Of a stretch of DNA of 12,251 bases, positions 9,120-10,044 are shown in pieces (positions within the stretch are counted from its first letter, which is position 1; each line of letters starts with the position of its first letter). This DNA comes from Anaerolineae bacterium. GTDB taxonomy: Bacteria; Chloroflexota; Anaerolineae; B4-G1; SLSP01. The stretch is taken from contig PWUY01000306.1 of assembly GCA_003562415.1 (NCBI GenBank), positions 1 through 12,251 on the forward strand, read 5' to 3'. A program made the translations under genes and the position numbers. The notes below the pieces were generated by a model that saw only the letters and a program-made list of their open reading frames with translations, was not told the origin of the DNA and did no database searches.

Positions 9120-9149
9120 AGTGGGCCTCCTGAATAGTGGTTGAAAGTT

Positions 9150-9194
9150 GAACGTGAAACGTGAAACGTCAAACGTCATGCGTCAAACGTCAAG
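9150..9194. repeat. Tandem heptamer array, about 6x (G/C)AAACGT (GAACGT GAAACGT GAAACGT CAAACGT CATGCGT CAAACGT), directly upstream of the FmdB-like gene on the minus strand
   Basis: Read directly at 9150-9194. On the minus strand it reads cTTGACGtTTGACGcaTGACGtTTGACGtTTCACGtTTCACG, a train of -35-like TTGACG hexamers ending about 30 nt before the Shine-Dalgarno motif. Confidence 0.6.
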
Positions 9195-9290
9195 AAACTG
9201 TTAAGGGTAGGGTTTCTGCTCCTTGTAAAACTGCAAATGGTAGCTATAGGGCGCGGGTGCGACCAGAACCAGTTGAAGCTGTGACGCCTC

Positions 9291-9307
9291 ACGTTTGACG
9301 TTTGACG
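9291..9307. repeat. Inverted partner of the 9150-9194 heptamer array: ACGTTTG ACGTTTG ACG, about 96 bp away
   Basis: Read directly. It is the reverse complement of the CAAACGT CAAACGT units at 9181-9194. Together the two blocks bracket roughly 95 bp (9195-9290) in the divergent FmdB/gmk spacer. Confidence 0.55.
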
Positions 9308-9341
9308 CCCCACGCCCCACCCGATCCAAAACTTGGACTAT

Positions 9342-9370
9342 CTTAACACTTCCCTCGATTGTGGTATAGT
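9342..9370 (+). promoter_or_regulatory. Candidate sigma-70 promoter with an extended -10, for the gmk operon
   Basis: TTAACA (9342-9347), a 17-nt spacer, then TGgTATAGT (9362-9370). The predicted start site is near 9377, about 38 nt before the gmk ATG. Confidence 0.45.
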
Positions 9371-9414
9371 AGAGCAGTGTCATTATAGCTTAACCTGAAA
9401 TGAGGAGCAAACTT

Positions 9415-10044
9415 ATGGCAGAAATTATCACACGCGATCCTTACGACCCCCGGCAGTATCCCTTACTCGTGGTTATCTCCGGGCCTTCGGGGGTGGGGAA
9501 GGATAGCGTTGTCCAACAGTTGATGCAGCGGGATTTTGCGTTTCATTTTGTGATCACGGCCACGTCGCGTCCGCCGCGCCCCGATGAGGTGGATGGCGTG
9601 GACTATTTCTTCGTGACCGAGGCGGAGTTCGAGGCGTTGATCGCCAACGACGAGTTGCTGGAACACGCCATCGTCTACGGGCAGCACAAGGGCATCCCCA
9701 AACAGCAGGTGCGGCAGGCCCTCGCCAGCGGCAAGGACGTGGTGATGCGCCTGGACGTGCAGGGCGCGGCAACGGTCAAGGCGCTGATTCCCGACGCGGT
9801 GCTGGTCTTCCTGAGCGCAGAGTCGGAGGCGGAGTTGATTGCGCGCTTGCAAAAGCGGCGTACCGAGTCGGAGGAGCAGTTGCAGCAGCGCATCCAGACC
9901 GCCCGCGAGGAGGTGGCGCGCTTGCACGAGTTCGACTATCTGGTCATCAACCGCGATAGCGCGTTGGATGAGGCGGTGGACGACGTGCTGACCATTATCG
10001 CAGCCGAGCATTATCGCGTCCATCCCCGGCAGGTGGCATTGTAA
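9415..10044 (+). CDS. gmk: guanylate kinase
   Basis: P-loop ISGPSGVGK, the motif ATSRPPRPDEVDGVDYFFV and the tail EFDYLVINRD match guanylate kinase along its whole length. The ATG at 9415 is preferred over the track ATG at 9400, because GAGGAG at 9402-9407 sits 7 nt upstream of 9415. Confidence 0.85.
   Translation: MAEIITRDPYDPRQYPLLVVISGPSGVGKDSVVQQLMQRDFAFHFVITATSRPPRPDEVDGVDYFFVTEAEFEALIANDELLEHAIVYGQHKGIPKQQVRQALASGKDVVMRLDVQGAATVKALIPDAVLVFLSAESEAELIARLQKRRTESEEQLQQRIQTAREEVARLHEFDYLVINRDSALDEAVDDVLTIIAAEHYRVHPRQVAL

Follow-up and report, generated by a model that had tools for sequence, protein, structure and literature searches.

The 295-bp spacer between gmk and a divergently transcribed FmdB-like gene, in the 12,251-nucleotide stretch of Anaerolineae DNA analyzed here (contig PWUY01000306.1; hereafter the window), holds two facing arrays of a degenerate heptanucleotide that together form an imperfect inverted repeat. 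With about even confidence, we believe that this feature is a young, lineage-specific quasi-palindrome of slippage-prone heptanucleotide simple sequence repeats (SSRs), acting as a transcribed, repeat-length-dependent hairpin in the FmdB leader. It is neither a gene nor a described RNA, and it is not demonstrably a miniature inverted-repeat transposable element (MITE) or an operator; paired tandem heptamer arrays, or long SSRs (LSSRs), are a kind of structure that is already known. The spacer is bounded by the start codons of FmdB (9117-9119) and gmk (ATG at 9415), and its parts are as follows.

9120-9414, no strand: the divergent spacer in full, flanked by the FmdB-like gene (8718-9119, minus strand) and gmk (9415-10044, plus strand).
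9126-9130, minus strand: the FmdB Shine-Dalgarno sequence, GGAGG, 6 nt before the ATG at 9119-9117.
9150-9194, minus strand: the left heptamer array, cTTGACG TTTGACG CATGACG TTTGACG TTTCACG TTTCACG TTCA, polymorphic in copy number; the 3′ arm of the predicted leader hairpin.
9154-9320, minus strand: the predicted FmdB-leader hairpin, with 25 + 3 + 8 = 36 arm-to-arm pairs, 8 of them G·U.
9195-9279, no strand: the nonrepeated center, of lower G+C content (about 0.49), with four single-nucleotide polymorphisms (SNPs) between alleles.
9201-9383, minus strand: an open reading frame (ORF) of 60 aa, judged spurious, spanning a repeat arm plus the promoters.
9280-9321, plus strand: the right heptamer array of six units, TGTGACG CCTCACG TTTGACG TTTGACG CCCCACG CCCCACC.
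9343-9370, plus strand: the gmk promoter, TTAACA, 16 nt, TGgTATAGT (an extended -10), with 10 of 12 matches in the promoter scan and the TG present.
9382-9410, minus strand: the putative FmdB promoter, TTGCTC (9410-9405), 17 nt, TATAAT (9387-9382), recognized by conservation.

Read in register, the left array has six units over 9150-9194 (TGAACGT GAAACGT GAAACGT CAAACGT CATGCGT CAAACGT CAAG). A preliminary description of the window had reported about six copies of (G/C)AAACGT there, and Tandem Repeats Finder agrees (9151-9193, period 7, 6.1 copies, 86% matches, score 58). The inverted array that it placed at 9291-9307 is likewise present, but its limits were drawn too narrowly: six units extend over 9280-9321, rather than the 2.4 copies of ACGTTTG that the same program recovers at 9291-9307, abutting 2.3 copies of ACGCCCC at 9305-9320. 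On both sides the unit, read outward, is YYYSACG, in degenerate versions such as TTTGACG, TTTCACG, CATGACG, and CCCCACG, and an irregular unit (CATGACG in one arm, CCTCACG in the other) occupies the same register in each. A repeat search aligns 33-nt inverted arms at 9153-9185 and 9282-9314 (82% complementary, 96 nt apart) around a perfect 14-nt core (9180-9193 and 9295-9308), so the whole can be described as an imperfect inverted repeat of 33-40 nt enclosing about 90 bp; the AT-richer interval of about 95 bp noted earlier thus stands. The center also contains a weak 16-nt direct repeat (9195-9210 and 9228-9243).

The heptamer inverted repeat in the spacer lies far beyond chance and is statistically secure. 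Its best ungapped score is 17, against 7.5 ± 0.96 and a maximum of 12 in 300 shuffles, and all six matches to SAAACGT in the 12.25-kb window fall within these two arrays. The arrays are those of an LSSR or variable-number tandem repeat (VNTR), with head-to-tail units in the 5-11-nt range and a length beyond chance. They stand in otherwise tightly packed DNA, as had been remarked: downstream, gmk, a rhomboid gene, and a DUF951 gene share boundaries at 10044 and 10772.

The divergent gmk/FmdB arrangement is conserved in Anaerolineae, and the FmdB homologs carry Anaerolineae names. Among our comparison loci from public genomes and metagenomes (designated by L-numbers), the spacer measures 74-75 bp in L214, L217, and L219 (FmdB identity 74-77%), 129 bp in L220, and 201 bp in L090; at 295 bp, that of the window is abnormally large, as first supposed, beside the roughly 75 bp of its relatives. 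From the FmdB side, the shortest spacers consist of the FmdB ribosome-binding site, TGTGGTATAGT, 10 nt, (C/T)ATTATAC, 17 nt, GGAGCAA, and the gmk ATG. In this compact arrangement (L214 2926-3000 and relatives; window 9362-9410), two promoters face each other with their -10 elements 10 nt apart, so that the predicted start sites of both nearly coincide. Both promoter motifs were found in all nine closest lineages. The extra DNA of the window, about 220 bp (about 9132-9355), lies between the FmdB ribosome-binding site and both promoter cores. It resembles an insertion, as had been suggested, in that it is missing from the 74-75-bp spacers, and alignment of the syntenic spacers shows the promoters to be shared and the arrays and center to be lineage-specific.

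The nearest other species is represented by L090, with an FmdB protein 88% identical and the same synteny, including a vault-protein gene described below. Its 201-bp spacer keeps the gmk promoter region and the right array (TTTGACG TTTGACG CTTGACG TTTCACG), lacks the center, and bears on its left side an unrelated octamer array, (GTCGGGTA)5-6. That octamer array (6872-6915) reads (TACCCGAC)n on the FmdB strand, and the same octamer recurs by rotation in a Thermomicrobiales contig, L051, at 2954-2988 (CCGACTAC ×4.4). Three other loci (L010, L013, and L220) have independent insertions elsewhere, between the two -10 elements, that of L013 holding a small CGTGAAGCC...GGTTTCACG hairpin of the same motif. 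Since the right array is common to the window's species and L090, it is the older part. The center, 9195-9279, is absent from L090 and from every other relative compared, and on this comparison the left arm and center are specific to the window's species. The common register of the irregular unit suggests that the left arm originated by inverted duplication of the right.

We envision an ancestral spacer of about 75 bp containing nothing but a pair of facing promoters, one for gmk (TGGTATAGT) and one for FmdB (TTGCTC-17-TATAAT). Extra DNA would have accumulated between the FmdB ribosome-binding site and the promoters in the line leading to the window and its nearest relative: first a (TTTGACG)n array and then, in the species of the window, about 90 bp together with a second, inverted array copied from the first. 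The arrays would then have grown and shrunk by whole units through slipped-strand mispairing.

Variation within the species speaks to the last of these steps. An identical gmk protein is encoded on nine public contigs from soda-lake sediment (JGI SL_1KL_011_SED, the NCBI metagenome-assembled genome GCA_007119705.1, ENA, and Logan assemblies), and an exact-match look-up of the FmdB-like protein returned no record. The spacers fall into two alleles, one in ENA ERZ27301261, NCBI GCA_007119705.1, and Logan SRR7083929 and the other in ERZ27301262, ERZ27301263, JGI 3300000362, and SRR490155, each present in several independent assemblies, and the spacer alignment shows that they differ in the left array by +GAAACGT and +CAAACGT. 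The long, eight-unit allele (L002, L003, and L004) has one extra GAAACGT and one extra CAAACGT, and it also lacks 3 nt at the outer edge of the left array and carries four SNPs in the center. From 9238 rightwards the same-species spacers are invariant; the right array is therefore constant within the species and, as noted, conserved in part in L090. Close strains thus differ in copy number by whole units, as LSSRs and VNTRs do, and whole-unit gains and losses of this sort in the left array are the signature of slipped-strand mispairing.

The gmk promoter is marked by TGGTATAGT, an extended -10 on the gmk strand at 9362-9370 that is conserved in nine lineages. On the other strand, ATTATA-N16/17-G(A/T)GCAA is kept in the window, L002, L090, L214, L217, L219, L220, L010, and L013, always just before the gmk ATG, and we infer that the conserved TTGCTC-17-TATAAT is the FmdB promoter. 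Its -35 (TTGCTC) overlaps the ribosome-binding region of gmk, GGAGCAA, on the opposite strand. The promoter scan found no minus-strand promoter-like site in 8900-9600; the conserved FmdB promoter falls below its threshold because the -35 matches at only 3 of 6 positions. If the FmdB-like ORF starts at 9119, its Pfam Zn_ribbon_8 match begins at residue 1. The conserved promoter now lies about 255 nt from that start codon, so that the whole structure would be transcribed as the FmdB 5′ leader, provided this promoter is still used. Between the right array and the gmk -35 lie 21 bp; the arrays overlap neither promoter, and for gmk the inserted DNA would simply sit upstream of the -35. The 60-aa ORF, already suspected of being spurious, matches no Pfam family, is 58 aa long in the long allele, and is mostly deleted in L090; for annotation, the lesson is that repeat DNA has here led gene finders to a false ORF.

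The preliminary description regarded the spacer as highly structured, and folding of the arrayed region bears this out, with a strong predicted fold that is better on the minus strand. As FmdB-sense RNA, 9140-9325 folds at -71.9 kcal/mol (z = -5.6; none of 200 shuffles as good), and the plus strand at -64.5 kcal/mol (z = -2.85; 2 of 200 as good). In the predicted hairpin the right array, which on the minus strand becomes GGGGCGU units, forms the 5′ arm, and these units pair with ACGUUUC by way of G·U. The arms differ by six transitions, all six of which make G·U pairs on the FmdB-sense RNA and none of which does so on the other strand. The stem is kept in a fold of the full leader and, in a shifted register, in the eight-unit allele, and it ends about 25 nt before the Shine-Dalgarno sequence. 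We propose that in the FmdB leader RNA the two arrays would pair into a G·U-rich stem of some 36 bp, which might plausibly be cut by a double-strand-specific RNase, or else affect message stability or act as a roadblock. Because stem length varies with repeat number, FmdB output could differ between strains.

By analogy, the closest functional precedent for such a leader hairpin would be the (ATCTTTC)n tract of Haemophilus influenzae hmw, which is transcribed as part of the 5′ untranslated region and forms with a G-rich arm a duplex that RNase III cleaves, the repeat number setting expression (PMC12721329). There, and by prediction in the window, a heptamer SSR sits between promoter and start codon and supplies one arm of a long hairpin with G·U pairs, the number of units varying between strains; for the window, folding in silico gives a long hairpin of repeats with a G-rich partner. 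In contrast to hmw, both arms of the window hairpin are repeat arrays, the gene is a housekeeping-type zinc-ribbon gene rather than a phase-variable adhesin, the units number 6-8 rather than more than 10, and the transcribed hairpin is a prediction from sequence.

The unit is not confined to this species. At least 120 stretches, with G+C contents from 0.32 to 0.71, matched (TTTSACG)3 in a scan of metagenomes. Among the matches listed, the arrays are mostly of 3-5 units, the nonseed units being chiefly TTTCACG, CTTCACG, and CATCACG, and an inverted partner is found upstream (CGTSAAA...TTTSACG, the polarity of the window) for 20 of 124 arrays and downstream for 1 of 124; looser counts agree. The loops of such pairs run from about 0 to 337 nt among the matches listed, against 85-96 nt in the window, and the window pair, too, has the form of two tandem-unit sites on opposite strands at a variable distance. 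No (YTTSACG)2 occurs in 1.28 Mb of FmdB-homolog loci chosen regardless of repeat, which shows that the array is not ubiquitous. In a crude ORF test, TTTSACG arrays were not enriched just upstream of start codons (0.43 against 0.42 for random positions; 0.11 against 0.08 when a ribosome-binding site was required), a weak control because random positions are mostly coding. When genes were called from G+C content at third codon positions, arrays adjoined 3′ ends and 5′ ends similarly often (76 and 58 among the matches listed).

Several of these loci deserve separate mention. In L094-L213, a convergent gene stops no more than about 25 nt from the edge of the array in 30 of 40 cases among the matches listed, at distances 7 apart (-19, -12, -5, +2, +9); the reverse-strand unit, CGTGAAA, offers a TGA whatever the frame, which is why many convergent genes terminate inside an array. 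Read the other way, the array contains no stop codon (FHVSRFT) and is found inside ORFs, for example at L176 4242-4311. Both L125 and L121 have several arrays per contig, and in L125 arrays of the TTTCACG type occupy 4 of about 8 intergenic regions within 14 kb (1762-1953, 3807-3827, 7601-7729, and 12823-12850), the first pair lying in a divergent spacer and enclosing a nested pair of mirrored octamer arrays (GGTTRTCA / TGATAACC). In L176, a 52-kb contig of G+C content 0.67 that comes from another sample, a 41-nt stretch at 8508-8553 matches the left arm of the window at 97.6% identity; AGACTTCSGAAGTCT, a REP-like (repetitive extragenic palindrome-like) hairpin motif used as a marker of the same organism, has no match in L176, so this arm cannot be assigned to the source genome. 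In L197 (3532-3924), (CGTGAAA)4 and (TTTCACG)4 bracket 337 nt that by eye would encode a small DUF167/YggU-like protein, which suggests that arms can flank a whole gene. Arm-to-arm compensatory variation across the other paired loci, checked by eye, was not convincing. Facing arrays of other units also exist: (TCGTCGG)6...(CCGACGA)9 in L080 (Dehalococcoidia), two separate GCAGTRA / TYACTGC pairs with different inner sequence in L066 (Thermodesulfobacteriota), and a heptamer array facing its inverted copy in L070 (Syntrophobacter).

The window itself holds a second facing pair, (CGCAAAGG)3.4 against (TTTGCCC)4 at 945-1011. It lies in frame inside a DUF2723/TMEM260-like membrane-protein gene on the minus strand (from 1940 off the window end), and forms a 26-residue insertion absent from eight homologs; the sequence flanking it suggests that a native GGGCAAA was the seed of the pair. 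Four assemblies, one of them carrying the long spacer allele, have this pair unchanged; such invariance is expected because a change of one unit would shift the reading frame. The 18.5 kb of source genome contains a single TTTSACG pair and a single GCAAAGG pair, and the further 5.4 kb of the full contig adds no heptamer arrays.

Several points weigh against a regulatory leader hairpin. The hairpin is not conserved, the leader of L090 being unstructured (z = +1.55), so any role would be species-specific or absent. The six G·U-compatible transitions fall in two duplicated units and represent about three independent events, with a chance probability of roughly 1 in 8, which makes the strand asymmetry weak evidence. 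The assignment of the FmdB promoter rests on conservation, with a weak -35 (3 of 6), and a new promoter may lie within the inserted DNA. Slippage alone leaves the near-uniform polarity of TTTSACG pairs (20 to 1 among the matches listed) unexplained, and this bias speaks for an added constraint, either mobility or a binding factor. Finally, our view of the source genome covers 18.5 kb.

The main rival to the leader hairpin is neutral repeat expansion, in which the arrays have the same origin, by slippage and inverted duplication, and persist as tolerated junk without regulatory consequence. We regard this as possible, if somewhat unlikely. It would sit well with arrays that are hypervariable between strains and species and are missing from most of the relatives in which both genes and both promoters persist, with the missing hairpin in L090, with a center that matches nothing, and with the intragenic pair at 945-1011, which is tolerated as a 26-aa loop insertion. 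It is harder to see, however, how a 36-bp stem directly upstream of a Shine-Dalgarno sequence in a transcribed leader could be kept without an effect on the mRNA, why every transition difference between the arms stays pair-compatible on the sense RNA, and why the right array survives in two species.

The wider distribution of the unit invites another reading, which we offer tentatively and think doubtful: that outward-paired (YYYCACG)n arrays constitute an undescribed cross-phylum intergenic family, being either a mobile hairpin resembling a REPIN (a REP doublet forming a hairpin) or the recognition array of a widespread nucleic-acid-binding factor. The window element would then be a diverged member caught in an mRNA leader. 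Pointing this way, among the matches listed, are the fixed polarity of pairs, the recurring CTTCACG and CATCACG units, the nested mirrored arrays, and the presence of arrays in up to half of the intergenic regions of some genomes.

In a narrower form of the same idea, the structure would be a nonautonomous REPIN- or MITE-like hairpin whose inverted arrays serve as ends for a mobilizing enzyme and which inserted into the spacer, as the preliminary description had considered. Here, too, the breadth of the metagenome matches and their polarity among the matches listed are favorable, as are the crowded intergenic regions and nested arrays of L125, the near-identical arm in L176 (which includes the odd CATGACG unit), the in-frame intragenic pair of the window, and the insertion relative to relatives. 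There are terminal inverted repeats (33-nt arms, 82%), but these arms are tandem units that vary by whole units in number, and the flanks, ...GTTGAAAGTTGA and CGATCCAAAAC..., share no direct repeat that could be a target-site duplication. A BLAST search with the core (9195-9283) of 2.0 Mb of comparison loci, including the rest of the 18.5-kb contig, found no second copy (best E = 0.48). The 74-75-bp spacers of L214, L217, and L219 resemble empty sites, and yet L090 has a single arm plus a different array, which a single insertion would not explain. The inner sequences of pairs elsewhere are unrelated, at about 0 to 337 nt; no second TTTSACG array occurs in 18.5 kb of the genome and none in the 1.28 Mb of repeat-blind loci; and no transposase-like gene or transposase family was detected among the scanned ORFs of the window. 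A mobile hairpin is unlikely in our view.

Two known kinds of element bear on this judgment. In Geobacter metallireducens, tandem octa- or heptanucleotide sites occur as opposite-strand pairs, numbering 24, 21, and 8, that are separated by variable distances and in some cases located within genes (Aklujkar et al. 2009, PMC2700814); in favor of mobility, insertion sequences lie there at a fixed distance from such paired sites (PMC2700814). Those sites (classes 1-3, Gmet_I), each of 3-5 tandem repeats of 7-9 nt, resemble the window in being paired on opposite strands between or inside genes; they differ in their units (GTTGCTYN, TCTCCGTS, and MTYCTGA) and in being multicopy (8-24 pairs), where the window genome has one TTTSACG and one GCAAAGG pair in 18.5 kb. 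With REP sequences, bacterial interspersed mosaic elements, and REPINs, the structure shares intergenic inverted doublets, long hairpins, a fixed polarity, positions after stops and between cistrons, and the coexistence of singlets and doublets. Unlike them, it has arms of tandem heptamers in variable number instead of a fixed palindrome of about 35 nt, a highly variable inner spacer, and no REP-associated tyrosine transposase gene in view.

An iterated operator or centromere-like site, each heptad binding one dimer of a small protein such as a ribbon-helix-helix (RHH) protein that regulates the gmk and FmdB promoters, seems to us quite improbable. Such sites consist of contiguous units of 7 bp (or 8 bp), direct and inverted, at 4-10 per site in promoter regions, MetJ with its metbox arrays of contiguous 8-bp units in promoter regions being an example. 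The RHH protein omega (a ParB) of pSM19035 binds WATCACW heptads, direct and inverted, at parS and operators, its known sites being arrays of 7-10 heptads (PMC9499535), and for the paired sites of G. metallireducens Aklujkar et al. proposed binding by a global regulator (PMC2700814). The spacer offers six contiguous heptads per array (at least four would be expected of an operator), a conserved SACG core with varying flanks, a fixed polarity of pairs, and a right array that two species keep, 21 bp before the gmk -35. In contrast to the contiguous, promoter-overlapping WATCACW sites, however, its TTTSACG arrays are separated by about 90 bp, stay clear of both promoters, and have the divergent pair polarity, and no RHH or helix-turn-helix regulator was found among the 10 window ORFs scanned. 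Copy number is unstable, and in unrelated organisms the heptamer is also found next to unrelated genes, within genes, and across stop codons. The arrays are missing from relatives that have both genes and identical promoter cores, which argues against a dedicated operator; in the window, the conserved FmdB promoter lies on their far side. The related suggestion that the minus strand presents a train of -35 elements did not hold up either: three TTGACG hexamers face FmdB, yet no TAnnnT lies 16-18 nt downstream of any of them.

A small noncoding RNA gene in the roughly 90-bp center, also raised at the outset because this DNA is intergenic, AT-richer, and flanked by a strong stem, is extremely unlikely: there is no Rfam match in 9120-9414 at E ≤ 10 (a scan of the whole window at that threshold gave three weak chance matches elsewhere), ARAGORN reports no tRNA or tmRNA, the center has no promoter or terminator within it and is weakly structured in the minimum-energy fold, and it carries four SNPs within the species and is absent in every other.

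The repeat biology of the locus is in itself ordinary. Heptanucleotide arrays have been noted since the short tandemly repeated repetitive (STRR) sequences of cyanobacteria and the 2007 survey of LSSRs; according to that survey as summarized in a later paper, most prokaryotic genomes have heptanucleotides as their commonest class of LSSR, slippage being the mechanism to which these are attributed (Mrazek 2007, via PMC4679880). The window agrees with LSSRs, VNTRs, and STRR heptamers in its head-to-tail 7-nt units, in a mostly intergenic setting, in length beyond chance, in whole-unit strain variation, and in slippage, and departs from them in having two facing arrays of one unit as an inverted repeat, with degenerate units; the TTTSACG unit did not turn up in the literature searched. 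Another parallel is the TAACTGA heptamer of Beggiatoaceae, cyanobacteria, and Bacteroidetes, for which 169 direct sets and 1 indirect set were counted and a post-transcriptional role was proposed (MacGregor 2015, PMC4679880). It too is a specific heptamer that forms intergenic arrays, of 2-6 copies, in bacteria scattered across the phylogeny, and it frequently lies immediately before start codons. Its repeats are almost always direct only, however, and TTTSACG showed no enrichment just upstream of starts in our crude test.

What the locus adds is a natural series, from the empty spacer of about 75 bp, through a one-armed sister species, to a two-armed quasi-palindrome with two repeat-number alleles, which shows the steps by which such structures grow. 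The probable position in a leader makes any effect on expression measurable. The polarity bias of TTTSACG across unrelated metagenomes, among the matches listed, suggests more than random slippage, and together with the evolutionary series it makes an old question approachable.

Other features of the window are less directly connected with the spacer. Directly downstream of the FmdB-like gene, 5925-8564 on the minus strand encodes a full-length Major Vault Protein (MVP) homolog of 879 aa (Pfam Vault ×4, Vault_2/3/4, MVP_shoulder); bacterial MVP homologs have been reported (bioRxiv 10.1101/872010). The gene lies beside FmdB in L090 as well and is absent in L214, L217, and L220, where an SDR gene follows FmdB directly, which makes it an insertion in the lineage with the arrays. 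Hairpins at 1955-1991, 4117-4180, and 5884-5916 are built from the same 15-mer (AGACTTCCGAAGTCT ... AGACTTCGGAAGTCT; 0.01 expected by chance) and constitute a REP-like terminator family, two of them following the transketolase and vault-protein stop codons by 9-14 nt; the family was not found in any other comparison locus. A low-G+C island at about 4000-5000 (0.47-0.54, against about 0.68-0.70 elsewhere) contains a TumE toxin gene (4573-4950, plus strand) overlapped upstream by an ORF (3932-4576, plus strand) that matches no Pfam family, and is probably an acquired toxin-antitoxin module.

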